Positions 9,916 through 51,779 of a DNA stretch of 64,000 nt are shown here, piece by piece. The notes below the pieces were generated by a model. That model had not been told where the DNA came from, did no database searches, and worked only from the letters and a program-made list of their open reading frames with translations. The DNA comes from Candidatus Poribacteria bacterium. GTDB taxonomy: Bacteria > Poribacteria > WGA-4E > WGA-3G. Position 1 is the first letter of the stretch. Each line of letters begins with the position of its first letter. A program made the position numbers and the translations under genes. The stretch covers positions 3,103,637-3,167,636 of the forward strand of contig CBDHGE010000001.1 in the NCBI GenBank assembly GCA_965262955.1, written 5' to 3'.

Positions 9916-10974
9916 ATGGAACCCGTAAAAGTGGGTGTGATTGGGTGTGGTGTCATCGGAAGCAGACATCTCAGTATTGCCTCGGATGCACCGCACATTG
10001 AGTTGGTCGCTGCGGCAGACCTGATTGAGGCGAACAGAACCACTGCTGCTGAACGCTTCAATCCACCCAAAATGTATACAAACGACATTGACCTGCTTGA
10101 TGACGATGAAGTTGAAGCAGTTGTCTTGGCATTTCCAACGCAGTACCGGACTGAGGTAGCCTTACGGGCGTTTGAGAGAGGTAAGCATGTTCTGATTGAA
10201 AAACCGATCGCCATGAACGCTGCTGAAGTTGAGAAACTCATCGCTGCGCGAGGTGATTTAGTCTCAGGATGCTGCTCATCCCGAAAGCGTTTTACACCAT
10301 CCGCGCAGCTCGCAACGCAACTGATTACCACTGGTGGTTTGGGCGAGCTGCGGACCGTCTACTGCCGCGCTATCATAGGAGCAAGGGAAAAACCGGATAC
10401 ACCGCGCCCTGCTTGGCGATTAATCAAGGCACTCAACGGAGGCGGCATCCTCGTTAACTGGGGATGTTACGATCTTGATTATCTACTCGGCATTACAGGC
10501 TGGAACCTCAAACCGCAAACTGTATTTGCCCAGACGTGGACCGTGCCTCAAGTCTTTAAATCGCACATCGCTCCCGGTTCCGATGCCGAAACGCACTACA
10601 CCGCACTCATCCGATGCGAAGGCGATATTGTTCTAAGCGTGGAACGAGGCGAGTTTATGACAATGCATTCGCATGCAGATTGGGAAATTATCGGCACTGA
10701 AGGCTCTCTTAAACTAAATATGCAGGATGGAAAACCGGACAGCGTCATCCACAATCGCACGACTACAGAAGGCGGCGTAGAGTCTACATCCCTCTCTGAC
10801 GCAGATGAAACGACTGAGGCACACCATAGCACGCCGTTGTCCGATTTCGCTGCCGCTATCCGAGAAAAACGACAACCCTCAACGAGTTTGGAAAAAGCCC
10901 TTGTTGTTCAGAAAATAACCGATGCTATTTACACTTCCGCAGAGACAGGAAAAGCTGTGGAGATAGGAGAATGA
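9916..10974 (+). CDS. Gfo/Idh/MocA-family NAD(P)-dependent oxidoreductase
   Basis: VKVGVIGCGVIGSRHL Rossmann motif, EKPIAMN, C-terminal alpha/beta domain. Start moved to ATG 9916 (AAAGGA RBS). The ORF track start 9847 adds 23 non-conserved residues. Confidence 0.85.
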   Translation: MEPVKVGVIGCGVIGSRHLSIASDAPHIELVAAADLIEANRTTAAERFNPPKMYTNDIDLLDDDEVEAVVLAFPTQYRTEVALRAFERGKHVLIEKPIAMNAAEVEKLIAARGDLVSGCCSSRKRFTPSAQLATQLITTGGLGELRTVYCRAIIGAREKPDTPRPAWRLIKALNGGGILVNWGCYDLDYLLGITGWNLKPQTVFAQTWTVPQVFKSHIAPGSDAETHYTALIRCEGDIVLSVERGEFMTMHSHADWEIIGTEGSLKLNMQDGKPDSVIHNRTTTEGGVESTSLSDADETTEAHHSTPLSDFAAAIREKRQPSTSLEKALVVQKITDAIYTSAETGKAVEIGE

Positions 10975-11789: not shown

Positions 11790-12776
11790 CTATACAAAAA
11801 ATTTCTCAGCAACTTGGGTTATAAAATTTTTGCCCATAACGCGATAGCCCTCCGCATCGGGGTGTAGGTCATCCGGGAGCAGGTGGACGTAGTCCTCCCC
11901 AAATACACTTAACCCGTCAACGTAATGGACCTGATTATCGCCGTGTCCCTGAAGGGCTTCGGCGGCGGCTTGTACCTCTTCACGCATTCCTTTCAGATGG
12001 AACCCTACGGCGTTTGCAGTCTCCTCCCGCGGTGGTGAACAAATAGGCGACATCAACACGAGTGGGATGTCTGGATGCTTCTCACGAACAATCTGAACTG
12101 CACCGATAATCGCTGGACGGAACGCTCGCGGTCCTAAACTCGACGCACCTTGGATATTAATACCGACACACATTGAGATGTAATCAGCAGATAGGTCACG
12201 AATCATCCGTGCTACCATGGCATCGAGATGACACTGCCCACCGTAACCAAGACAAGTTAAATTCAACCCACGTTCACGTGCAACAATCGCTGGCCACGTC
12301 TGCGTCGCCGATGCTGCTGTTCGGCACTGCGTGATGGAGCTGCCGTAAGTCACCCACCGTTTTCGTGGGTCTGTAACCGAGTCCAAAGTTGCCCCGTCAT
12401 CAATTTCTAAGCTGCGGAGTTGAAAACTTCCGAATTGCGGCAGCCACAACTCAATCAGTTTTTCCCCATCGGACAAATTGTCAAAAACAAAACTGTCTTT
12501 TTGAGTCAGGTCGAGCGATGCTACGACTTCACCATCACAACAAAGGTCAAGTATACCGCTTTCATTTTGTGGAACGATATTGCCTGAAACCTGTGTCGTA
12601 TTGCTCCGAAAACTAATGCGAACCCCTGCAGGCATTGCCGAGCGTTCAAGTAACGGCTCAGGGAATAGGACATGCATCGGGTGCGGTGTGCGCCACGGCA
12701 TCACCCAGTCTTCAGTTTTTTGTAAGGAGATGCTCCCCTGCCAAGTCAATTGGGGTGCATCCGGCTTCAATTGCAT
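11790..12776 (-). CDS. SGNH/GDSL-like hydrolase (putative carbohydrate esterase) with N-terminal beta-sandwich region
   Basis: WVTYGSSITQC (GDSx-type nucleophile block), ...YISMCVGINIQG..., PDDLHPDAEGY (catalytic D-x-x-H block). Confidence 0.55.
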   Translation of the reverse strand: MQLKPDAPQLTWQGSISLQKTEDWVMPWRTPHPMHVLFPEPLLERSAMPAGVRISFRSNTTQVSGNIVPQNESGILDLCCDGEVVASLDLTQKDSFVFDNLSDGEKLIELWLPQFGSFQLRSLEIDDGATLDSVTDPRKRWVTYGSSITQCRTAASATQTWPAIVARERGLNLTCLGYGGQCHLDAMVARMIRDLSADYISMCVGINIQGASSLGPRAFRPAIIGAVQIVREKHPDIPLVLMSPICSPPREETANAVGFHLKGMREEVQAAAEALQGHGDNQVHYVDGLSVFGEDYVHLLPDDLHPDAEGYRVMGKNFITQVAEKFFV

Positions 12777-12803
12777 TATATTCTCCTCTACGCATAGGGG
12801 TTG

Positions 12804-13616
12804 TTACATCGCATCGACTATAGCGCGCAGTTGCCGTACGCCTCTCAACATATCTTCTGGTTGTCCCCAGTGTTCGATACTCGCCGAACCCGTGAACCCG
12901 TCAGCAGCCAGAGTTTCCAGCAGCTCCTCATAGTGCAATCCTGTATCACCAATAGGATTCAGATTTTTCTCACTGTTTGGTTTTACATGCACATGCCGCA
13001 CCAATCCCTTAATATGTGCGTATCCTTCCGGTAATGGATTTTCTCCACAATGTAACCCGTTATTGACATCCCAACAGGAGGTAAGTGCTGGGCTATTTCC
13101 GAGCGCGTTGATGACAGCACGTGTCTCTTCACACGTTCCGGCAAGACATGCACTTTCGTTTTCAAAGCAGAGCGTAACATCCCCACTCTCTGCAACCGGG
13201 ACGACAAGTGAGAGTTTTTCCACGATACGTTCCATGTAGTCATTAATGTCTGGGCGCGGCGCGCCTTTAATACGGCGATTCGGATTCCAAAATGTAAATC
13301 CACGAATAACTTGGGTATCAAACGCTTGTGCCAGTGTCACCATCCGATCAAAGTACTTTCGGTGTTGATCATATTCTTCGGGATCGTCAATTGAGCATTT
13401 CCCAAAAGGGGACCCAACACTCGCAACCCGGACGTTGTAAGTGCTGAGCACATCCTGAACGCGTTTGACATCGTCATCGTCAATTTCGGTTACGTGTTTG
13501 CCCCAAACACCGCCGCGTATTTCAACAGTGTTGGCACCGGCTTCAACGCCGAGTTTAATGGCTTCCTCAAAATCGGTTTTAGAAACTTCGTCAGCAAAAT
13601 AGCAGACGTCAATCAT
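12804..13616 (-). CDS. Sugar phosphate isomerase/epimerase (xylose-isomerase-like TIM barrel)
   Basis: MIDVCYFADEVSKTDFEEAIKLGVEAGANTVEIRG..., family-typical metal-ligand His/Glu/Asp pattern. Confidence 0.8.
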   Translation of the reverse strand: MIDVCYFADEVSKTDFEEAIKLGVEAGANTVEIRGGVWGKHVTEIDDDDVKRVQDVLSTYNVRVASVGSPFGKCSIDDPEEYDQHRKYFDRMVTLAQAFDTQVIRGFTFWNPNRRIKGAPRPDINDYMERIVEKLSLVVPVAESGDVTLCFENESACLAGTCEETRAVINALGNSPALTSCWDVNNGLHCGENPLPEGYAHIKGLVRHVHVKPNSEKNLNPIGDTGLHYEELLETLAADGFTGSASIEHWGQPEDMLRGVRQLRAIVDAM

Positions 13617-13639: not shown

Positions 13640-14281
13640 TTACAGTTCTTTTAGTTCTGCGAGAATATGATCAGGACCGGTGCGAGTTCCAAACGTATCC
13701 AGGAATTTTGATACGACACGCCCTTCCTGATTGATAATGTAGGTTGCTGGACGTGCTATATCCGTGTCGCTCGGGTCAACGACATTGTAGGCAGCGATTA
13801 CCACCATGTCTGTATCTACGAGTAAGGGGTACGTAAGTTCAAGCGTCTTTTGTGTTGAGTCAACAACCGTCAGAGGATCGGCACTCATGGCGATCAGTGC
13901 AGCACCTTCCGCTTGAATGTCTGCATAACCAGTTTGCAACTCACCGAGTTGCAGACGACAGTTGCCTCACGTGCCTGTACGGTAGAAGACAATGACCAGT
14001 TTTTGTCCCTTGTACTGCGAAAGATTGTGGGTATTTCCCTTGCTATCTGGTAGGGAAAAATCAGGTGCAAGTGCCCCAATATCTAATCCCTCGCCCGGAG
14101 GGAGTTGTTCAGCTGCCTCCTCTGGTAATGTTATGAGATCTGTTGTTCGTTCGGCGTTGTCGCAAGCAAGACATAAGAAAATGAGAGCACTTAATAGAAA
14201 TGAGAAGCCTATTAAATTAGCCTTGTGCGAAAACAGCGATTTCAAGTTTGCCAGGTAATCGTCCATCAGTTTGAGTTCCAT
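13640..14281 (-). CDS. Selenocysteine-containing AhpC/TSA-redoxin (peroxiredoxin/thiol-disulfide oxidoreductase-like) lipoprotein. In-frame UGA (13967..13969) read as Sec.
   Basis: ORF-track fragments 13967..14281 and 13640..13939 are in the same frame. Own translation across the TGA: ...APDFSLPDSKGNTHNLSQYKGQKLVIVFYRTGT-U-GNCRLQLGELQTGYADIQAEGAALIAMSADP..., i.e. a redoxin fold with U-x-x-C in place of CxxC. N-terminal lipobox FLCLAC. SECIS-like hairpin follows the UGA. An alternative start at M6 (14266) gives an ATGA overlap with the sulfatase stop. Confidence 0.7.
13935..13953 (-). promoter_or_regulatory. Candidate bacterial SECIS hairpin for the Sec-redoxin (UGCAACUC-GGU-GAGUUGCA: 8-bp stem, G-rich apical loop, 14 nt 3' of UGA)
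   Basis: Perfect inverted repeat tgcaactcaccgagttgca on the + strand. Position and loop composition match bacterial SECIS expectations. Confidence 0.5.
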
Positions 14282-15597
14282 GTTTCTGGTTCTCCTTTAT
14301 CATTTTGTGAGTCCATCCAGTCGCGGACATCAGCGCGCATCTTTTCAAGGATCAGATGCATATCCGTCCTAAAGGCTAAATTGTTGAACTCATACGGATC
14401 CGTCGTTAGGTCATATAGTTCTTCCACTGGATGGTGTTGTGTAAGATAAACGAGTTGCGCCGTTTGAGGATCCACTTCCGCTTTTTCCACCCAACTTTTC
14501 CATACTTCAGCGTGACTCTCTGGAATATCTTCAACTTCAGTAAAGTGGGTTGTCCAACTATTTTGAGGCATCAGATTCAAAATGTATTTGTAACGACTGT
14601 CGCGGACACAACGCTGCGGGAAAATATTCATATTTCCATCGCGGGTGTGCGTACCGTAGATTTTATCTCGGAAGGTTTCCTGCTCTCCAAGTAAGACTTT
14701 CTTAAAACTTCTGCCATCTAAACTGTCAGGCGGGTCGCCGCCTCCAATATCAATGAGTGTTGGTAAAAAGTCAACGTGTGAAATCATCGCATCAGAAACA
14801 GTAGCGGTTGGAATTTCGCCGTGCCATTTCGCAAGGAACGGCAGACGAGTGCCGGTATCATACAGCGTCCATTTACAGTGGGGCCACTCTGCACCGTGGT
14901 CGGTCGTGTAGATAAAGAGCGTATTATCAGAATATCCGTGTGTCTCCAGCATTTTATTAACTTCACCGATGCGGGTGTCCATTGTGGTAATGTCTTGATA
15001 GTAGTTAGCAAGTGCCTTACGAGCGATGGGCGTGTCAGCGATATATGGCGGTAAAGGCAGAGACTCTGGATCATAAATCTTGTTCGGTTCCCATGTAACA
15101 TGGGGGTTGCTATCGCCGAGGATAAGACAGATGGGCTGCCCCGAATTTTCTTGTCGGTGGCTTGAAAGAAAATCTTCGACAGGTGCTGTATCAAGTCCTT
15201 CCGCCCGATATTTCCGATTATTCTCGGCACGCTTTGGAAGGAATCCGCCAATGTATTCAAAGTCAAAGAGGGTTTCCGGTTTAACATGTGTTTTCCCAGC
15301 GATTGCTACGCGATAACCCAGTTCTCGGAGCAACTTAGGCAAAGCTTTGAGATGCGCGTGACACTCGGTATGATTTCCCATCGCTCCGTGCCGAGCCGGA
15401 TAGAGTCCAGTGTAGAGGGTAGAGCGGGACGGAGCACAAGTCGGTGTCGGCGTGAAAGCGTGTGTAAAACGAATCCCTTCTTCTGCAATACTATCCAAGT
15501 GTGGTGTTTGAATATGTTCATTCCCGTAACAACCGAGGTATTCCCAGCCGTGGTCATCGGATAGATAGACGATGATGTTAGGTTTCTTCAATGACAT
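14266..15597 (-). CDS. Arylsulfatase (formylglycine-dependent sulfatase family)
   Basis: PTCAPSRSTLYTGLYPARHG (C-x-P-S-R FGly motif), GKTHV, TTDHG metal-site blocks. Confidence 0.9.
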   Translation of the reverse strand: MSLKKPNIIVYLSDDHGWEYLGCYGNEHIQTPHLDSIAEEGIRFTHAFTPTPTCAPSRSTLYTGLYPARHGAMGNHTECHAHLKALPKLLRELGYRVAIAGKTHVKPETLFDFEYIGGFLPKRAENNRKYRAEGLDTAPVEDFLSSHRQENSGQPICLILGDSNPHVTWEPNKIYDPESLPLPPYIADTPIARKALANYYQDITTMDTRIGEVNKMLETHGYSDNTLFIYTTDHGAEWPHCKWTLYDTGTRLPFLAKWHGEIPTATVSDAMISHVDFLPTLIDIGGGDPPDSLDGRSFKKVLLGEQETFRDKIYGTHTRDGNMNIFPQRCVRDSRYKYILNLMPQNSWTTHFTEVEDIPESHAEVWKSWVEKAEVDPQTAQLVYLTQHHPVEELYDLTTDPYEFNNLAFRTDMHLILEKMRADVRDWMDSQNDKGEPETWNSN

Positions 15598-15600
15598 AGA

Positions 15601-16473
15601 TCAGTCCTTAGCGGGTGGAAACGGTTTCACAGGTTCATTAATTTGATTTCCTCTTGGGATAGGTTCCGGTGGAAATTGCGTGAAAATCTCACCATTCTTC
15701 ATCGCCCATCGGGCGTTGGGGAAGAAGCGTTTGTTCCTCCCAGCAATCTCTGGATTTGTCCAAACGCCAGCAACGGCAACACGACTCTGCTCACTTTTGT
15801 TTGGTGGACTGTAGTGCCACATATTACTGTGCCAAAAGACAACGTCTCCAGTCCCTAATTCAATATGGCGTACACCGTGCTTTTCGATCATCTCCTGAAC
15901 GGCTTTGCGTGGCAATTCACCGTGAATACTGTCTGGGTATAGGACGTGTTCGATAATCTCGGTTTTGTGACTGCTCGGTATAAACTGCATGCATCCGTTT
16001 TCGCGAGTTGCAGGTTCAAGTGCTACCCAGAAATTGAGAGGTTCAGTATCGCCATCTCGCCAGAGTCCGTTGTCTTGGTGCCACGGGGTTGCAGCACCTG
16101 TGCGCGCCGGTTTGAGGAAGCTACTATTGAATTTCACAATCACGTCGTCTCCCAAAAAATAGCGGGCAATGTTCAGCATGGCAGGACCGGTATGGATATT
16201 GTGCCATATCAGCGGAGATTGAACACAGAAATTAGCGAGTTTACGGTAGCGTGCGATGCGTCCTTGCGGTGAGTCCTCCATCGGGTTCATTGGATCGAAA
16301 TCGGCAAACTCGCCAGGGTTGGGCAGCATAAGCACGTTGCGAATGACGCCGCGGAGTTGTGCTGCCAAATCTTCTGAGATAACATTGCGCTCAATAAAAT
16401 AGCCTTCACTCTCATATCGCGCTTTTTGTGCAGCGGTTGGTTGCCAGTTTCGCATGAAAATGTTTCCAGTCAT
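15601..16473 (-). CDS. Phytanoyl-CoA dioxygenase (PhyH) family Fe(II)/2OG oxygenase, tandem copy A
   Basis: WHQDNGLWRDG...FWVALEPATRENGCMQFIPSSHK...VFWHSNMWHYSPPN (HxD...H facial triad). About 88% identical to 16511..17422. Likely true start is M7 (16455), by alignment with the paralog. Confidence 0.85.
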   Translation of the reverse strand: MTGNIFMRNWQPTAAQKARYESEGYFIERNVISEDLAAQLRGVIRNVLMLPNPGEFADFDPMNPMEDSPQGRIARYRKLANFCVQSPLIWHNIHTGPAMLNIARYFLGDDVIVKFNSSFLKPARTGAATPWHQDNGLWRDGDTEPLNFWVALEPATRENGCMQFIPSSHKTEIIEHVLYPDSIHGELPRKAVQEMIEKHGVRHIELGTGDVVFWHSNMWHYSPPNKSEQSRVAVAGVWTNPEIAGRNKRFFPNARWAMKNGEIFTQFPPEPIPRGNQINEPVKPFPPAKD

Positions 16474-16510
16474 TTAGACAACAACGTCTCTTTTCTTCGA
16501 TGATATAAGA

Positions 16511-17422
16511 TTAGTAGCCCTTAGCGGATGGGAACGGCTTCGGTGCTTTAGCAGTTTGATGTTCCATCTGGACAGCTTCCGGTGGAAATTGTGTGCACAC
16601 CTCACCGTTTTTCATCGCCCATCGGAAGTGTCCCCAGAAGCGTTTACTAATCTTGGTGATCTCTGGATTTGTCCAGACACCGGCAACGGCAACACGGCTC
16701 TTCTCACTCCGATTGGGTGGGCTATAATGCCACATATTACTGTGCCAAAAGACAACGTCTCCGGTACCTAACTCGATGTGATGTACACCGTGCTTTTCTA
16801 TCATCTTCCGAACCTCCTCACGCGGAAGTTCGCCGTGGATGCTATCTGGGTATAACACGTGTTCAATAATCTCAGTTTTATGGCTGCCGGGTATAAACTG
16901 CATGCATCCATTTTCTCGGGTTGCTGGCTCAAGCGGCGTCCAAAAATTGAAAGGTTCAGTTTCACCATCTCGCCAGAGTCCGTTGTCTTGATGCCACGGG
17001 GTCGCGGCACCAGTACGCGCTGGTTTAAGGAAGCAACTATTAAACTTCATGATGATATCGTCGCCAAGGAAATAACGGGCGATGTTGAGAAGGGCAGGAC
17101 CCGCAAAGGTGTTGTGCCATATCAATGGGGCTTGGACACAAAAGTTGTTAAGTTTACGGTAGCGTGCAATGCGTCCTTGTGGTGAGTCTTCCATTGGATC
17201 CATGGGATCGAAATCAACAAACTCACCCGGGTTGGGCAGCATAAGAACATTCCGAATGACACCACGGAGTTGTGCTGCCAAATCTTCTGAAATAACATTA
17301 CGAAGGATAAAATAACCTTCGTCCTCATATTGTGCTTTTTGTGCAGGCGTTGGTTCCCATCGTTCCATTGTTAATTTCCTTTGCTTCTTTGTGGGGCTGA
17401 TGCGCTTGCGATGCCTACCCAT
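16511..17422 (-). CDS. Phytanoyl-CoA dioxygenase (PhyH) family Fe(II)/2OG oxygenase, tandem copy B
   Basis: Same motifs as copy A. Probable start is MERWEPT at 17368 (AAGGA RBS). The ORF track's 17422 start adds a basic N-extension. Confidence 0.85.
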   Translation of the reverse strand: MGRHRKRISPTKKQRKLTMERWEPTPAQKAQYEDEGYFILRNVISEDLAAQLRGVIRNVLMLPNPGEFVDFDPMDPMEDSPQGRIARYRKLNNFCVQAPLIWHNTFAGPALLNIARYFLGDDIIMKFNSCFLKPARTGAATPWHQDNGLWRDGETEPFNFWTPLEPATRENGCMQFIPGSHKTEIIEHVLYPDSIHGELPREEVRKMIEKHGVHHIELGTGDVVFWHSNMWHYSPPNRSEKSRVAVAGVWTNPEITKISKRFWGHFRWAMKNGEVCTQFPPEAVQMEHQTAKAPKPFPSAKGY

Positions 17423-17544
17423 AAATTACGCAAAGATGCCTTGAACCTGACATTGGAACTCTTCAACAACATCACTATCATCAGAATGTTTAAGAAGTCA
17501 CAGTTTCTTATATGATAACACTTGAGAAGATGTGTGTCAAGCCA

Positions 17545-19560: not shown

Positions 19561-20960
19561 TGTAGGTTCTGCTATACTCTTTAGACCAGTTGGCAGACAT
19601 ATCGAGCGTTGTCGCAAGGCAACGTGTCTGCCTACCCACTCGATAGGGGTTAACGGCTGGTAACTGGTACATCTTGAGAACCTACACATACAAAGTTCAG
19701 CACCATAAACGCAACCGTCATTTGCGTTCGGATACGCGTATCATCTCGCAAGTGCATAATCACTTCATAGCGTTGACGCGTCGGCACTACCGGATTTACG
19801 GATGCTGCGCAGGCTATAAGCGTGCGACCTATAACCGATTGAGTCGGCACTTGACGAAGTTGAAGAAACTCGAAAGATATGCTCACTGGCGTATCCCATA
19901 TGCTTGGGCGTTGCAAGAGTGCTTGAAACGTATTGAGTTGGGGTATCTCAACTTCTTTGAGAAGCGTGCCAAGCGTCCGCCGAAGTTCAAGTCGTGGCGA
20001 AACTACCGCTCTATGACCTTCAACGGCAATCAGGTCAAGGTTGAAACCGTATTTGAGAAGGAACGCCACAAGAGACGTGTGCCCGTTGCGAAAATACGCC
20101 TTGCTGGACGGTGGTATCGGTTCTGGTATTCTCGTGAGATAAAAGGTAATATCAAACGTATAACCGCCAAACGTGACGCACTCGGTGATTGGTATATCAG
20201 TATCACAACAGATTATGAAGGACTTACCCCCGAACCCAAGACGGGTGATGCTGCAGGGTTCGACTATGGCAACAAGACCTTTCTGACCTGTTCGGATGGC
20301 ACGAAATACGAATCGCCTGAGTTCTATAAGCAGTCTGCCAAGAAGGTAAAACAAGCCAATCGGGAGTTGTCTCGTAAGGTTAGAGGTAGCAACAATCGCA
20401 AACGTGCGAACAAGCACTATGCCCGAACCCATCGCAAGATTCAGAGACAGCGCGAAGATCACCACTGGAAACTTGCTTTGGAACTTGTCGGCAAGTTTGA
20501 CCTCTGTTTCTTTGAGGACTTGAACCTTGACGGCATGAAACGACTTTGGGGACGCAAGGTCTCTGACCTCGCCTTTGGTGAGTTCCTTGAGAAAATCCGA
20601 TGGCAAGCGAAAAAACGGGGAAAGCGCGTTGAGACGATAGGACGTTGGGAGGCGACAACGCCAGTTTGCCACAACTGCGGGCAAAAGCACCTCTTCATAG
20701 ATTTGAGTGTTCGCGATTGGTTCTGCCATAGTTGTAAAATCCATCATGACCGCGACATAAATGCGGCGATAAATATCCTCAAGGTTGGGGCATCAACCTT
20801 TGGAGGAGAGGGTATCAGACTTGCGATCGCAAGCAACCCTTGTTGATACCAGAATCCACCCGAAACGGGGGACACTTAGAATCCCCCGAATTCATTCGGG
20901 GGAGTATGTCAAGAAGAATTCGCAGCTGTATGCCCTATCAGAGCAGGCGGGCTATCGGCG
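19561..20960 (+). mobile_element. IS200/IS605-family, TnpB-only (IS1341-like) insertion element: structured left end, tnpB, and 3' hairpin-rich right end (probable omega/reRNA scaffold)
   Basis: Nested inverted repeats at 19563..19685 (GTAGGTTCT...AGAACCTAC, GACCAGTTGG...AACTGGTAC, GGCAGACA...TGTCTGCC). tnpB at 19674..20846. Downstream hairpins cccgaaacggggg and cccccgaattcattcggggg at 20855..20915. Exact boundaries not determinable from one copy. Confidence 0.6.
19674..20846 (+). CDS. tnpB: TnpB (IS605 OrfB) RuvC-like RNA-guided nuclease
   Basis: N-terminus MRTYTYKVQHHKRNRHL (TnpB-typical), RuvC blocks, C-terminal zinc finger CHNCGQKHLFIDLSVRDWFCHSCKIHHDRDINAAINI. Confidence 0.9.
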   Translation: MRTYTYKVQHHKRNRHLRSDTRIISQVHNHFIALTRRHYRIYGCCAGYKRATYNRLSRHLTKLKKLERYAHWRIPYAWALQECLKRIELGYLNFFEKRAKRPPKFKSWRNYRSMTFNGNQVKVETVFEKERHKRRVPVAKIRLAGRWYRFWYSREIKGNIKRITAKRDALGDWYISITTDYEGLTPEPKTGDAAGFDYGNKTFLTCSDGTKYESPEFYKQSAKKVKQANRELSRKVRGSNNRKRANKHYARTHRKIQRQREDHHWKLALELVGKFDLCFFEDLNLDGMKRLWGRKVSDLAFGEFLEKIRWQAKKRGKRVETIGRWEATTPVCHNCGQKHLFIDLSVRDWFCHSCKIHHDRDINAAINILKVGASTFGGEGIRLAIASNPC

Positions 20961-28374: not shown

Positions 28375-29028
28375 TTAAACAGCACGCTCAATCGACCAAT
28401 GACGGTCAGTGCTCTGGACGACCTCTGCTCCCGGCATATCCATCTGCGTCAGCATCTCATTAACTTCAGTAATGGTAAACGCCGCAAGGAAAGAATCATA
28501 ATACAACTTCTGTTGATAAGGAGTATCATCCGCAGCATACAGATCCACAAAGGCTTGGGCATCTGCTGGCGTTTCAGGACGGATAAGATCGCGGATAAGC
28601 ACAACACCTTCGGAACGAGCAACTCTGCCCATCTCTTTGAGTGCGCTCATCGCATCGTGGATATGGTGGACGATGCTATTAGAAATGAGTCCGTCGAAGG
28701 TATTGTCGGGGTAGGGTAAAGTTTTGGCATCAACGAGTTCAAGAGTGATCCGATCAGTAAGACCGGCGTCTGCGACGTGACGTTTCGCTATTTTTAGCAT
28801 TTCCTCGGACAGGTCGATGGCGGTAATGTGGATGTTCGGACAGCGTTGCGCGAGAAGAAGAGGGATTTGTGCGGGACCGGTGCCGACATCAAGAAAATGT
28901 CCAGTGTTCGCACCCAGTGCGACAACGCGATCGACAAAAGCGCGGTCAACCTCGCCATGCTCCATCGCATCGTAGGCTTCGGCGGCTTCCGCTGTATCCA
29001 TAACTTCGGGTTCTACAATTCGATTCAT
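28375..29028 (-). CDS. Class I SAM-dependent methyltransferase
   Basis: LDVGTGPAQIPLLLAQR (motif I), ...DGLISNSIVHH (motif II/III). Confidence 0.75.
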   Translation of the reverse strand: MNRIVEPEVMDTAEAAEAYDAMEHGEVDRAFVDRVVALGANTGHFLDVGTGPAQIPLLLAQRCPNIHITAIDLSEEMLKIAKRHVADAGLTDRITLELVDAKTLPYPDNTFDGLISNSIVHHIHDAMSALKEMGRVARSEGVVLIRDLIRPETPADAQAFVDLYAADDTPYQQKLYYDSFLAAFTITEVNEMLTQMDMPGAEVVQSTDRHWSIERAV

Positions 29029-29812
29029 GCTCTACTTTCCTAATAAGTTCAGAAACAGTTAGCGCGTTCTGACGGATCTGATCCGGTTGAAATCGTGTAT
29101 ACATGCCAACCGCCATAGCGTCCGTCGGTTTGATATTTTCAAGGGCGAGTTGAAAGGCTTCACGAGGCTCGTTTCTACCAGCCGCTAATACCTTTATAGC
29201 AATGATCGGCATCGGTATTGCTTGTATCGCTGCAAATGCTGCATAGCGATCGTTTGGCAGATACAACTCTCTATGTGTTGTGTGATTATACAACGCACAG
29301 ACATAAAAGTCAACATCGTATCCTTCGGAATAACAGTACTTGAGGATCTGAGGATCGTGCGTGCCGAGTCCAACCGCACAGCCGAGATCGCGGATGTATT
29401 TCAGACTTTCGCGCAATGAATCGAGGCGTCCTTCGGCATACAATTTATCGGTCGTACCACCGTGATGGTAAATAGCAATCGGTTTATAGCGCGCAATAAT
29501 CCCTAAATATTCATTGAGATCTGCGTATTCTGTATCTTTAGGGGTCTGCGCAATCCACTGAATTGTGCCGCCCGCGTTCCAGTATTCGTTGAGAGTTCGC
29601 ATAATATGTCTATCGGCGCGAGCGAGGACAGTGTTAATTCCATTCTTCTCTGCCTGACGGAGATCCATCATAATTTGGATCGTCGTATAGTAATCTTCCA
29701 TAGCTTTCGATGCTTCTGGAGAGCGATGCGAGATGCCACTATACGGATTACCGCCGATAATGAGTCGCGTGACACGATGTGATGCGATGGAAATTGTAGG
29801 TATTTTAATCAT
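28946..29812 (-). CDS. Conserved hypothetical protein, family X copy A (paralog of 56153..56989)
   Basis: Shares blocks with 56153..56989: LIIGGNPYSGISH / LVIGDNPIYGYSH, GINTV / GINGW, GGTIQW / GGTINW, GLGTHDPQIL / GLSVHDPKLL, DVDFYVCALYN / DIDYYMTGLYN, KVLAAGR. No family confidently recognised. The 3' end overlaps the methyltransferase start by about 80 nt. Confidence 0.5.
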   Translation of the reverse strand: MIKIPTISIASHRVTRLIIGGNPYSGISHRSPEASKAMEDYYTTIQIMMDLRQAEKNGINTVLARADRHIMRTLNEYWNAGGTIQWIAQTPKDTEYADLNEYLGIIARYKPIAIYHHGGTTDKLYAEGRLDSLRESLKYIRDLGCAVGLGTHDPQILKYCYSEGYDVDFYVCALYNHTTHRELYLPNDRYAAFAAIQAIPMPIIAIKVLAAGRNEPREAFQLALENIKPTDAMAVGMYTRFQPDQIRQNALTVSELIRKVEHESNCRTRSYGYSGSRRSLRCDGAWRG

Positions 29813-33871: not shown

Positions 33872-36379
33872 TTAATGCGGAATCCCCAATTGGTGCATCC
33901 GACGGTGAATTGCTTCTCGTGCTTCTTGGAACGGACGAGAGAGGAATTCCAAGTGATCATCCTCACCGTGATGGTGCGTCACAGTCCCGTGTTCGTGGTG
34001 GCGTGCCGTTTGCTGGATATAGGACAGCCCACCCTCAATCAGAGTCAACATGTAGTTTGCCGTTTCTGGATCGAACATCCACCACTCACCGCCGACAGCA
34101 ATATAGACGGGTGAGGTGTGGGCAATAATGCCCCGTCCCCAGCCATCGTGATGTGGAATGGCTTCCGCATAGTTAGGTCCGCCACATCGCGCAGCAATCC
34201 AAGAGTGCTTATCCACCTTCAGGTTGGCTTTCAGGCGTAAATGCGATTTACCCTCTTTGTCCTCAGTGGAAGCAACCACCTGTCCTGCCTGAATAATCTG
34301 CAGCGTATGGATCGGGAAAATGGAATCCGCAGAGGCTTCCACCTCGACAGTGCCGCCATTACCGGGAAGGTTGATCGTGCTACCAATCGGTTGCCCGTCA
34401 ACGGTGAGACCGATCATGGGACCGCCACTCAGGAAAGTGTTACCAGCACTCATGTATTTACACCAGTTATCGTAATTGAATTCCTCATCATCGGGAATGT
34501 GGACGTATGTGCGATAAACGCCTACTGGTACATCACTACTCATCTTATCTGTCCCACCCACGAGAGGCAATTTATAGCCACAGTTAAGATAACGGTAATA
34601 CTCAATATGTCCATACATGGCATTGGTAAGATACTCAACGGCATCTACCCGTCCAGTGGCAATCAGTGTCGCTGGTTCGCAGTTCGGATTCGGAATATGC
34701 GGTAAGACAACAGTCCCACCTTGTGCATGACAGGCATCTGCCCAGTGGGAGAGTGTGACCTCCATATTTCCACCGAGTTCGGCTTCTCCAGGTCCATCAG
34801 AACACCACGGCGCGACCTGTTCCTTTAAACCGAGAAGTGTAAGATGACCGAGGAGATGCTGACGGTTCTCTTGGGTCGCATAGACGATGCTTCGTCCGTC
34901 GGCGGATGTCGTGGGTCTACCGATGAACTCCTCTGTATTCGTGAAGAGATGCCCCCACTGTGAAAGAAGAAGATTCACGACGCCGAGGTCTTCACCTTGT
35001 GCTTCAGTGTGTGCACCTTGTGTAGACAAGAAATGGACGTGCGTATCGCCGCTGAAATAACGTTCAGCGTTCATATCACACCACCGTTTTATCCGCAGCG
35101 TCAACTCGCGTTGCCCGGGTTTTATATTCACGGTCGTCCGTAGTGGTGTGTATTCAAAGCCGCGGGCAACATCAACAATAACATCCCCGCGAGGCAGCCA
35201 TCCTTGACACGTGCCGTCAATATAGGCATAACTAATCTGTCCGAGTCGTACATCACCACCGACATCTATGTGCCATGTGCCGTTGTTTGAGTTGACGTGA
35301 GCGTGATGTCCGTGTGGCGCGTACGGCACACCGTGCGGGGAACGGAAATGGATACGACACGGCACGGGTTTGCCTGTATCTTCATCAATCACTGTGGTAT
35401 GCACCCAGTTCCTGCCAGAGTCGATGACCTCCACCTTGACGCGTTCGTTGGGTTGAACACTTCCCTTTTCTTGGACTTCACCCCAGTTGACGCTGCCGAG
35501 GGTTTCACCGTGGTTCTTGACTTCAACAGTAGCCGATGGAGTAGCAGATACCTCAGTGTACGCAGGGCTACTCTTGTCGTTTTGGGATTCACCCCAGCCT
35601 TTGAAATCGTCGTTAATAAAGGCATCGGGAGCATTTTCCGGCAACGGATAAGGGTAGGTTGCTGAGCCACGGTCAACGTTGACTTCTATGTCAAAAGGTT
35701 TATCAGCATCATCAGATTGAGGAAGCGTGATTTTGACTTCCCGACGAGGACGACGCGGTATCGGACTTTCGTCGAGGTAACCAAGCGTGATTGCTGCAAC
35801 AATAAATCGTCGTTCCTGTGGTTGAATCTCAATTGATGCTATTTCAACGCCATCCCTCGGATTTTTCCACACCCACAAATAGTAGTCGCGCGGCGTCCCT
35901 TGGGTTGCCTCAGTTTGTCGGTTACCCGCTGAACCCCATGCCCCTTCATGCCGAGGTAATAAACCTTCTTGTCGGTCAGGTATGGCGAGGAATGTCTGTT
36001 GTCCCCATCCTTGCGGAACGCCGCCAATCTCAAAGCGTTCACGAATCGGCACACTGACCGTTTCACCGTCAGTGTAATGGAATACATAATTGGCGATTAA
36101 TCTGGCTATCGGTTCGCCTTCAGGTATGCGCGACTCAAGCAAGCGATGTACAAAGATAACTCGCTTTGGGTCTTCGTTGACAGAAACTTGGATGGAATCG
36201 CTATTAACCCCTTCGCCGAAGCCCAAAAAACAGGATGCACCTTCAGCGATTTCAAAAGGAAGCCCGTGGAACGTCTGTGACCCAACACTCGGCGTTGCGT
36301 CCGCACCGATAACTTCTGGACCGACATTACACAAACCAGAAAGTGAAATAGGTTGGTAGTCTCGCATAATAAACCTCAA
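33872..36379 (-). CDS. Large (835 aa) hypothetical protein with His-rich putative metal-dependent hydrolase region
   Basis: ERYFSGDTHVHFLSTQGAHTE (HxH), PHGVPYAPHGHHAHVN, C-terminal HHEHGTVTHHHGEDDH. Possibly PHP/CehA-McbA-like. No signal peptide. Function not established. Confidence 0.45.
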   Translation of the reverse strand: MRFIMRDYQPISLSGLCNVGPEVIGADATPSVGSQTFHGLPFEIAEGASCFLGFGEGVNSDSIQVSVNEDPKRVIFVHRLLESRIPEGEPIARLIANYVFHYTDGETVSVPIRERFEIGGVPQGWGQQTFLAIPDRQEGLLPRHEGAWGSAGNRQTEATQGTPRDYYLWVWKNPRDGVEIASIEIQPQERRFIVAAITLGYLDESPIPRRPRREVKITLPQSDDADKPFDIEVNVDRGSATYPYPLPENAPDAFINDDFKGWGESQNDKSSPAYTEVSATPSATVEVKNHGETLGSVNWGEVQEKGSVQPNERVKVEVIDSGRNWVHTTVIDEDTGKPVPCRIHFRSPHGVPYAPHGHHAHVNSNNGTWHIDVGGDVRLGQISYAYIDGTCQGWLPRGDVIVDVARGFEYTPLRTTVNIKPGQRELTLRIKRWCDMNAERYFSGDTHVHFLSTQGAHTEAQGEDLGVVNLLLSQWGHLFTNTEEFIGRPTTSADGRSIVYATQENRQHLLGHLTLLGLKEQVAPWCSDGPGEAELGGNMEVTLSHWADACHAQGGTVVLPHIPNPNCEPATLIATGRVDAVEYLTNAMYGHIEYYRYLNCGYKLPLVGGTDKMSSDVPVGVYRTYVHIPDDEEFNYDNWCKYMSAGNTFLSGGPMIGLTVDGQPIGSTINLPGNGGTVEVEASADSIFPIHTLQIIQAGQVVASTEDKEGKSHLRLKANLKVDKHSWIAARCGGPNYAEAIPHHDGWGRGIIAHTSPVYIAVGGEWWMFDPETANYMLTLIEGGLSYIQQTARHHEHGTVTHHHGEDDHLEFLSRPFQEAREAIHRRMHQLGIPH

Positions 36380-50941: not shown

Positions 50942-51550
50942 CTATCCCGTTTCCTCACCTCTAATTTTCAGTACAGCAGTTGCACTTGCCCCTTTTGATC
51001 CACCCTGTGAACCGAAACCTGCTTTAGAGAAATAGTGATCAGCCTTTACTTGGACGGCACTGGCGTTGATACTGAGAGTGACAACATCGTTTCCAATTTT
51101 GCATCGGATTTGGTATGGGATTGATTTAGTTTTGATTTCTCCATAGGAACGCTGTCGCCATACTACACCGGAAATTTCGGCGTAAGTTGTGAGCGCGGTT
51201 ACCACCGCTTCTTCGACATTGTTGCTGGTGTTGAGAACATGTTGAGCGGCTTGTGCAGCATTATTTGCAGCATGCTCCAAACGTTCCTGCACAGTTTTTG
51301 CTTCCATCTGTTCTGTTTTATCGTCGGTACTACTTTTTCGCAACGCAACATAGATTATTGCACCCACAACACCAACAAAAGCGATAGTGCTGAGGATAAC
51401 GGTCCGTCTGAGTTCACGCCGACGCGTCATGTTTTCAAAGTCTTCACGATGGTGTGGATAAAAAGCGTCGTGTGCGGAGATCGGTGTGCTCCAATATAGT
51501 ATACCAGTAAGTAACAGTAGTGCTGCAAAAAGGAGAAGGAATCGAAACAT
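50942..51550 (-). CDS. Hypothetical membrane-anchored protein
   Basis: MFRFLLLFAALLLLTGILYW N-terminal TM, second TM, then soluble domain. Start moved to 51550. No family recognised. Confidence 0.4.
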   Translation of the reverse strand: MFRFLLLFAALLLLTGILYWSTPISAHDAFYPHHREDFENMTRRRELRRTVILSTIAFVGVVGAIIYVALRKSSTDDKTEQMEAKTVQERLEHAANNAAQAAQHVLNTSNNVEEAVVTALTTYAEISGVVWRQRSYGEIKTKSIPYQIRCKIGNDVVTLSINASAVQVKADHYFSKAGFGSQGGSKGASATAVLKIRGEETG

Positions 51551-51779
51551 CGGTTTGTGCCTACCTTTCCAGCTATTGTAGCAGCAAGACCCTGAAGCGT
51601 CAATCCTATATAATCTGGATACAGTTCTGTGTCTAATTGAAAGATTTACGGTTGGAGTCTTCATCTCGAAAGAGGAACCTGGAAATGAGACACCTATGAG
51701 TTGCATGAATGAAAAATTTGACTTTAAATTGTAAATTTGGTACAATAGACAAGTAGATACAAATTAAGGAGGCAGAGAG

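Follow-up and report, generated by a model that had tools for sequence, protein, structure and literature searches.

Does the in-frame TGA between two adjacent open reading frames (ORFs) of a sponge-symbiont genome end one protein, or does it specify selenocysteine (Sec) within a longer one? The question is raised by a locus in a 64,000-nucleotide stretch of Candidatus Poribacteria bacterium (contig CBDHGE010000001.1, positions 3,103,637 to 3,167,636 of the forward strand; this whole stretch is called the window below, and positions are counted within it). An earlier note, written by a model from the letters of the window and a list of its ORFs, had proposed that two minus-strand ORFs form a single Sec-containing redoxin lipoprotein. 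The arrangement is as that note described it. The ORFs at 13967..14281 and 13640..13939 share one frame, and the sole break between them is the TGA at 13969..13967. The comparative analyses reported here indicate that 13640..14281 on the minus strand is, with high probability, one mis-split selenoprotein gene in which the UGA is read as Sec.

Reading through the TGA yields a product of 213 amino acids (aa), in which an AhpC/TSA domain of the thioredoxin fold comes after an N-terminal segment that would act as a signal or anchor. The translation runs ...VIVFYRTGT before the TGA and GNCRLQLGELQ... after it, and the full read-through is written as ...QKLVIVFYRTGT-[TGA]-GNCRLQLGELQ.... When the Sec residue is replaced by Cys, the fused protein has a single Pfam match, to AhpC-TSA (pfam00578), that covers residues 68–190 and therefore crosses the TGA (E = 1.9e-29; 102.6 bits against a cut-off of 26; profile positions 1–122 of 124). 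Each ORF fragment alone is not a domain. The proposal of one AhpC/TSA-redoxin fold across the TGA is thus borne out, and so is the suspicion that the start of the second fragment is spurious, given that the TTG at 13939..13937 is a Leu codon inside QLGELQ.

The first line of evidence for decoding of the TGA is its conservation. The orthologue set comprises 13 distinct Candidatus Poribacteria sequences with 54–82% amino acid identity. A scan of species-representative genomes added eight orthologues, all from Candidatus Poribacteria metagenome-assembled genomes, five of which are complete chromosomes (complete chromosomes bearing the gene include OZ246958.1, OY282374.1, OX638316.1, OZ220722.1, and OZ242029.1). 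The gene is also found on a circular contig of 4.6 Mb (ERZ25068685 ctg6988_464x_c). TGA occupies the identical codon in all 13 distinct orthologues, and TAA or TAG is found in none. It is also present at the equivalent codon in two divergent relatives, namely L031 (FFATWS-U-PHC) and L032 (FYRGGW-U-PFC). Synonymous sites are near saturation on both sides of the TGA, with a mean proportion of synonymous differences (pS) of 0.64 upstream and 0.54 downstream. The corresponding nonsynonymous values (pN) are 0.18 before the TGA and 0.19 after it, giving pN/pS ratios of about 0.28 and 0.36, respectively. This combination of heavy synonymous divergence and restrained pN on both sides indicates that the region after the TGA is translated in frame and is under purifying selection. 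The reading of the TGA as Sec, as put forward in the earlier note, is supported by these patterns.

The records in the protein databases can mislead for this gene. A word-indexed protein search returned nine near-full-length homologues (P0001–P0009, 54–58% identity) that carry Trp at the TGA position, as well as four N-terminal fragments that end in ...FYRTGT. The Trp homologues were considered as evidence against Sec and rejected as translation artifacts, because the DNA of L001 and L002–L005 has an in-frame TGA at the Trp position and translation with table 11 does not yield the database protein. All of the Trp-bearing records come from contigs shorter than 2.5 kb, on which gene calling seems to have changed over to genetic code 4. 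On contigs of 4.6 Mb and 5.2 Mb, the gene is called as two fragments, and reading through these split calls restores the complete redoxin. Homologues ending at FYRTGT had been named beforehand as a sign that the two halves might be separate genes. Those found are truncations at the equivalent TGA, each followed by its C-terminal half in frame.

Homologues that have Cys in place of Sec bear on the same codon. The closest Cys form is P0022 (locus L029:948-1628), which is 45% identical to the window protein, has Cys aligned to the TGA (FFHDLTCYWC), and also shows a lipoprotein-like architecture. Cys is found at this position in P0025 (FYRATTCGSC), P0014, and P0017 as well; P0022 and P0025 were found by an exhaustive representative search. 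Among more distant relatives, 11 genomic homologues of the [FW]YRGxWCPxC type (28–36% identity; from Bacteroidota, Proteobacteria, and others) have their first Cys aligned to the TGA. Across this range, which extends from 45% identity to the remote [FW]YRGxWCPxC family, the Cys matches the TGA codon, and the motif of the window protein is accordingly UxxC. The check for Cys homologues across the TGA was thus run with a clear outcome: Cys aligns to the Sec residue in all of the Cys relatives cited. The description of the site as a WCxxC-type motif stands only in part. Sec does replace the first Cys of a CxxC, whereas the Trp is missing from the Poribacteria orthologues and is found only in the more distant relatives. 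One of the relatives has an independent in-frame TGA at the equivalent site. This is Alkalihalobacillus sp. BA299 (L027, around position 10127 of NZ_JAFLJM010000001.1), a cultured Bacillota isolate in which the TGA takes the place of the first Cys in the PRX_like2 motif (FYRGSW-U-PYC), so that it represents a Sec form of the superfamily. There, the TGA is followed by a separate 7-bp hairpin, CUUCGUG-AGUUG-CACGAAG.

The locus L030:3107-3778 (P0018) is 58% identical, and both of its redox residues are Ser (FDHSGESPFSQ), giving an SxxS variant. Its contig has a coverage of only 2x, with weak FGE-sulfatase fragments next to the gene, which might be either a paralogue without redox activity or an artifact of sequencing. 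L031:3001-3621 sits behind a PhyH-sulfatase pair, and L032:753-1511 is a second divergent Sec form. Between Poribacteria genomes, the redoxin is 61–78% identical, compared with 83–95% for the flanking genes (11790..13616 and 14266..17422), which indicates noticeably faster evolution of the redoxin. The identities of the flanking genes also place the window itself in a Poribacteria genome.

The second line of evidence concerns a putative bacterial Sec insertion sequence (SECIS) downstream of the UGA. The earlier note had described an 8-bp hairpin with a G-rich loop 14 nt after the UGA. Such a hairpin is present at 13953..13935, but the spacer is 13 nt, with the stem starting at the 14th nt. The stem in the window is 7–8 bp long, and its conserved core comprises 7 bp at 13936..13952, GCAACUC-GGY-GAGUUGC, with the apical loop GGU at 13943..13945. 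The element is encoded by codons +5 to +11 (L-Q-L-G-E-L-Q). Its weight as evidence comes only from the comparison with orthologues. In the 13-sequence alignment, the core stem is paired in 98.9% of cells, compared with 14–56% when the partner strand is slid by 1–3 columns. The stem codons Leu+7 (CTC), Glu+9 (GAG), and Leu+10 (TTG) do not vary among the 13 sequences, whereas the eight other invariant-Leu columns have codon entropies of 0.8–2.2 bits. Among invariant residues, codons with zero entropy account for four of seven in +3..+11 and four of 54 elsewhere (Fisher p = 0.004). The sole change in the stem, CAA to CAG, turns an A-U pair into G.U and keeps the pair. The Gly codon of the loop is free to vary between GGT and GGC, and both loop G's are invariant. 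All bacterial SECIS elements are reported to have a G at loop position 1 or 2 (PMC13582414), and the loops of all Sec orthologues, which begin with GG, fit this pattern. L031 and L032 share the identical hairpin CAACUC-GGY-GAGUUG. The idea of a SECIS-like hairpin thus gains support from conservation in the orthologues and from suppressed synonymous change in the stem, not in the loop.

The hairpin differs among the forms that lack Sec. The folding energy at the hairpin site has a median of about -2 kcal/mol in eleven Cys homologues, compared with -9.2 in the Sec forms, although the AT-richer genomes of the former confound this comparison. The closest Cys form, L029, has a 9-bp hairpin at the SECIS position, but with the loop CUA and thus no G; this hairpin could be a SECIS remnant or precursor. 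In the SxxS variant L030, the hairpin is lost.

Several observations weigh against the Sec reading. Taken alone, the hairpin in the window is unremarkable: for 26 nt, the z-score is -2.4 and four of 200 shuffled sequences fold as well, while in contexts of 45–76 nt, z is about -1.3. When 55–76 nt of the window sequence are folded, the minimum-energy structure is a different one, and a competing 7-bp pairing exists between 13919..13925 and 13950..13956 (minus strand; GUCUGCA/UGCAGAC), which is specific to the window and is not present in the orthologues. No two-sided (compensatory) covariation was found in the stem across the 13 sequences because the stem is nearly invariant; this near-invariance also makes a covariation shuffle control uninformative, and suppressed synonymous change was used instead. 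In addition, part of the conservation of the hairpin is forced by the conserved peptide QLGELQ. Searches of Rfam gave no match, either for the whole window at gathering thresholds or for 13880..14000 at permissive E-values, where only noise was returned. Every NCBIfam match of the protein is below its cut-off, including those to the curated selenoprotein redoxin families. Finally, genes of the Sec machinery were not found nearby. Pfam searches revealed no selA, selB, or selD in the 64-kb window (50 of 57 long ORFs) or in 10 orthologous loci of 15–20 kb. ARAGORN detected no tRNA whatever in the window or in these 10 loci, and hence no tRNA-Sec gene (selC) there. At the level of the phylum, by contrast, published data favor Sec decoding: SelA, SelB, and SelD entries among the Clusters of Orthologous Groups (COGs) are listed for the Poribacteria bin44, bin70, and WGA-3G (Slaby et al. 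2017, PMC5649159 Table S4), and Sec-type Group 4 hydrogenases have been reported in Poribacteria in a 2026 survey (PMC13582414).

These points have to be set beside what other explanations of the TGA would require. If the TGA were a real stop, the locus would be a pseudogene or two genes, one encoding a 104-aa lipoprotein fragment and the other a 99-aa fragment that starts from the TTG. The splitting of the gene by automatic annotation of long contigs and the database fragments that end in ...FYRTGT agree with such a view. However, neither half is a complete fold and a single Pfam domain spans the stop; moreover, at least 15 lineages have TGA and no other stop at this codon, and the frame beyond it is open and under purifying selection. 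No conserved start codon or ribosome-binding site for a second gene was found either, and the TTG in question is a codon of the hairpin stem. A real stop is therefore highly improbable. The chance that the UGA encodes Trp or Gly through an alternative code (table 4 or 25) is negligible. The nine Trp-bearing database proteins would favor it, but these contradict their own DNA under table 11 and derive exclusively from the short contigs described above. Furthermore, the homologues have a catalytic Cys at the UGA position, not Trp or Gly, and TGA is the ordinary stop of 12 other long and well-supported genes in the window, among them the PhyH and sulfatase genes directly upstream. The latter excludes codes 4 and 25 and leaves the standard code.

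A more subtle alternative accepts that the UGA is recoded via the hairpin and SelB, but has Cys inserted by a non-canonical tRNA-Cys of the tRNA(ReC) type, which would make the product an ordinary CxxC redoxin. Certain bacteria do have such a system, which relies on SECIS elements (Vargas-Rodriguez 2018, as described in PMC13582414), and the content of the window does not separate Sec insertion from Cys insertion. Nevertheless, tRNA(ReC) was rare in that study among genomes with single-Sec motifs (about 2.3% of those Sec-type genomes that lack a UXXU motif), and it co-occurred with canonical tRNA-Sec. Poribacteria genomes also carry the SelA and SelD COGs, which are needed only for Sec synthesis (PMC5649159). 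Insertion of Cys is thus considered very unlikely, and translation of the UGA as Sec remains the preferred reading of this gene.

With Sec at position 105, what would the protein do? Matches among sequences in the PDB include Prx-like and BCP proteins (E of about 1e-11) as well as ResA (1st9 and 2h1b type; E of about 2e-11). In the ResA alignment, U105 and C108 fall on the CxxC, with U105 at the N-terminal Cys, and the RPATY segment falls on the cis-Pro loop (LPTTFLI). In the alignment to the Prx-like protein 2ywn, C108 falls on the peroxidatic Cys, and where the peroxiredoxin active site has Pro, Thr, and Arg, the window protein has Arg, Sec, and Pro, respectively. The peroxiredoxin pattern PxxxTxxC with its Arg is accordingly absent: the corresponding segment reads FYR-TG-T-U-GN-C, and the Arg position of 2ywn is taken by Pro178. 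The NCBIfam models for BCP, PrxQ, AhpC, and PrxU give scores of 25–50 bits, compared with cut-offs of 140–272. Judged by these sequence features, the protein is not a canonical peroxiredoxin. A Sec-dependent peroxiredoxin, acting as a peroxidase rather than as a thiol-disulfide oxidoreductase, is nonetheless an alternative with some grounds, given that the best Pfam family is AhpC/TSA, that Prx-like and BCP proteins are among the structural matches, and that Cys108 lies on the peroxidatic Cys. Since the characteristic active-site residues are replaced, the CxxC-type spacing and the cis-Pro-like RPATY loop fit ResA/TlpA equally well, and the peroxiredoxin models score far below their cut-offs, this alternative is regarded as unlikely.

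The product is instead probably an exported, membrane-tethered thioredoxin-fold redoxin with the active site Sec105-Gly-Asn-Cys108, which would act in the manner of CxxC oxidoreductases. During translation, the UGA at 13969..13967 would be read as Sec, with the hairpin 13 nt downstream acting as a bacterial SECIS that recruits SelB with Sec-tRNA(Sec). The selenolate of Sec105, placed by the ResA/TlpA alignment as the attacking N-terminal Cys of the CxxC, would then attack a disulfide, sulfenate, or peroxide of the substrate. Cys108 would resolve the intermediate to form an intramolecular selenenylsulfide, which a membrane reductant system may re-reduce. The positions of these and other features are listed in Table 1.

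Table 1. Features of the redoxin locus, with positions counted in the window.
Feature	Position	Strand	Remarks
Predicted complete selenoprotein coding sequence	13640..14281	minus	213 aa, followed by the stop TAA at 13642..13640; orthologues collinear over the full length
Shine-Dalgarno sequence AAGGAG, 10 nt upstream of the ATG	14292..14297	minus	Inside the 3' end of the sulfatase gene; read from the sequence
N-terminal export/anchor segment (probable)	14162..14281	minus	Charged n-region, hydrophobic stretch of about 16 residues, Ala39-Cys40 (Cys codon 14164..14162)
In-frame UGA, predicted Sec105, first residue of the UxxC (U105-G-N-C108)	13967..13969	minus	TGA in orthologues and Cys alignments
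Cys108 (TGT), predicted resolving Cys of the UxxC	13958..13960	minus	Invariant column; alignments to 2ywn and ResA
Putative bacterial SECIS hairpin, UGCAACUC-GGU-GAGUUGCA	13935..13953	minus	Stem UGCAACUC/GAGUUGCA; comparative evidence
TTG (Leu115), false start of the second ORF fragment	13937..13939	minus	Leu+10 of QLGELQ
Pro178 of the conserved ARPATYII segment	13748..13750	minus	Nearly invariant; aligned to the cis-Pro loop of ResA

The N-terminus and the junction with the upstream gene differ in some respects from what had been supposed. Met1 (ATG at 14281) is backed by the AAGGAG sequence and by a conserved M-x-x-K-L start in the orthologues. The suggested ATGA coupling to the arylsulfatase does not hold, as the two genes overlap by 16 nt instead (ATG at 14281 and sulfatase stop TGA at 14268..14266), and a TGATG junction is present only at Met6. 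All 13 orthologues share the layout of the n- and h-regions as well as the Ala-Cys, and the segment probably serves as a signal anchor or as the signal peptide of a lipoprotein. As for the lipobox FLCLAC named in the earlier note, the Ala-Cys after a hydrophobic segment is real and shared by all 13, but the box is non-canonical: positions -3 and -2 are Cys-Leu in most sequences, and the strict PROSITE-style pattern ([LVI][ASTVI][GAS]-C) is matched in only two of the 13. Given the Cys-Leu at these positions, the lipoprotein status is plausible, no more.

The redoxin gene is part of a tightly spaced minus-strand run that encodes, in order, two PhyH proteins, the sulfatase, the redoxin, an AP_endonuc_2 TIM barrel, and an SsfX3_N/GDSL esterase. 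The order of redoxin, TIM barrel, and GDSL is kept in 10 of 10 Poribacteria loci. The sulfatase/dioxygenase setting, also claimed previously, is seen in the tight PhyH-sulfatase-redoxin run of the window, and a sulfatase is located upstream in only seven of the 10 genomes. A near-consensus sigma-70-like promoter match (TTGACA-17-TATCAT with a TG extension; 11 of 12 positions) at 17540..17512 on the minus strand precedes the first PhyH gene, and within the run, that strand has a single weak terminator-like match. With this promoter, the genes from the first PhyH to the GDSL esterase would form one transcription unit. Neither the sulfatase nor the TIM-barrel protein shows an obvious signal peptide, so that co-location does not yet imply a shared function.

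A more far-reaching interpretation would regard the Poribacteria clade (FYRTGT-U-G/A-x-C) as a distinct, obligately Sec-dependent, lipid-anchored periplasmic redoxin that is functionally tied to the conserved cluster around it for the degradation of carbohydrates and sulfated glycans, comprising PhyH dioxygenases, a sulfatase, a TIM-barrel isomerase/epimerase, and a GDSL esterase. This interpretation is decidedly doubtful. Under it, one possible role in the sponge mesohyl would be the protection or maturation of exported enzymes in the face of oxidants from the host. If it were true, selenium supply would gate a symbiosis-relevant pathway, and the faster evolution of the redoxin would reflect adaptation at the host interface.

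Other parts of the window were also surveyed. No second selenoprotein candidate was found among TGA-split ORF pairs across the window; a same-frame PhyH/sulfatase pair was considered as a TGA-split gene and rejected, because these are two adjacent genes. An IS605 OrfB/TnpB-like gene with OrfB_IS605 and Cas12f1-like TNB domains is located at 19674..20846 on the plus strand, and a 365-aa ORF on the opposite strand (19650..20747), which has no Pfam match, overlaps it. A similar TnpB gene is found near the redoxin locus in L006. The window shows the heavy paralogy typical of Poribacteria, with at least six PhyH dioxygenase genes (starts at 15601, 16511, 22075, 37544, 58051, and 59061), five Laminin_G_3 genes (starts including 8888, 10971, 17545, and 27196), and five GFO/IDH/MocA oxidoreductase genes. 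Some sizeable ORFs have no Pfam match, such as 33872..36379 (835 aa), 28946..29812, and 50942..51745.

Candidatus Poribacteria is a dominant uncultivated phylum of sponge symbionts. The gene adds a concrete and conserved candidate selenoprotein to this phylum, which agrees with reports that sponge symbionts are enriched in SelA and SelB. The results also call for annotation repair, as the gene is split in two or translated with Trp in every public Poribacteria genome examined, and the Trp records could mislead tests of Sec/Cys homology. In addition, a small natural series for the study of Sec/Cys exchange and SECIS decay is available in the Sec forms, the Cys form with 45% identity and a hairpin without a loop G, and the SxxS variant.

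Among known systems, the Prx-like thiol:disulfide oxidoreductase selenoproteins ("Prx-like 1") belong to pfam00578 and have UxxC or UxxU motifs (PMC2398784, PMC9312934). According to the same sources, this family was predicted by Kryukov and Gladyshev and is abundant in the Sargasso Sea and Global Ocean Sampling (GOS) metagenomes. In the GOS marine metagenomes, it is among the most abundant families, with 225 Sec sequences and 2,740 Cys homologues (PMC2398784 Table 2; PMC9312934 Table 1). The window protein resembles this family in its AhpC-TSA domain, Sec as the first residue of the UxxC, Cys homologues with CxxC, marine bacterial origin, and a function that is predicted only. By description, it is a candidate member, as both of the descriptors stated for the family, whose reference sequences include WP_010940744.1, apply to it. 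Compared with that family, the Poribacteria clade has its own FYRTGT-U-G/A-x-C motif without Trp, a lipoprotein-like N-terminal anchor, and a fixed neighborhood with the TIM-barrel and GDSL genes downstream.

The PRX_like2-type CxxC redoxins of Bacteroidota, Proteobacteria, and Bacillota (L016–L028) are 28–36% identical to the window protein over the domain. They share the identical FYR...CxxC spacing, the conserved PATYIINQEG segment, and a second Cys that aligns to the peroxidatic Cys. However, they have Cys rather than Sec (except for Alkalihalobacillus L027), most lack the downstream hairpin, and many are cytoplasmic with an N-terminal helical extension in place of the signal peptide. The ResA/TlpA/DsbE proteins (B. 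subtilis ResA, 1st9 and 2h1b) are membrane-tethered thioredoxin folds, an architecture that is also predicted for the window protein, and their CxxC and LPTTF align to its UxxC and RPATY. The window protein differs in having Sec for the attacking Cys, in its score against the NCBIfam ResA model (61 bits compared with a cut-off of 170), and in the absence of cytochrome c maturation genes around it. Among the curated families, NF053656 ("TUGYCR motif thioredoxin fold (seleno)protein") is similar in its T-U-G-Y-C-R motif (T-U-G-N-C-R in the window protein), thioredoxin fold, and UxxC. Nevertheless, the window protein is not a member, as it scores 19 bits compared with a cut-off of 100 and matches profile positions 2–62 of 146, and it also falls below the cut-offs of the other curated NCBIfam Sec redoxins (SelL-related, WAxxUGC, and PrxU). 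Taken together, these comparisons indicate that, rather than introducing a new mechanism or protein class, the window gene belongs to a Poribacteria-specific sub-clade of a kind of selenoprotein already known from marine bacteria.

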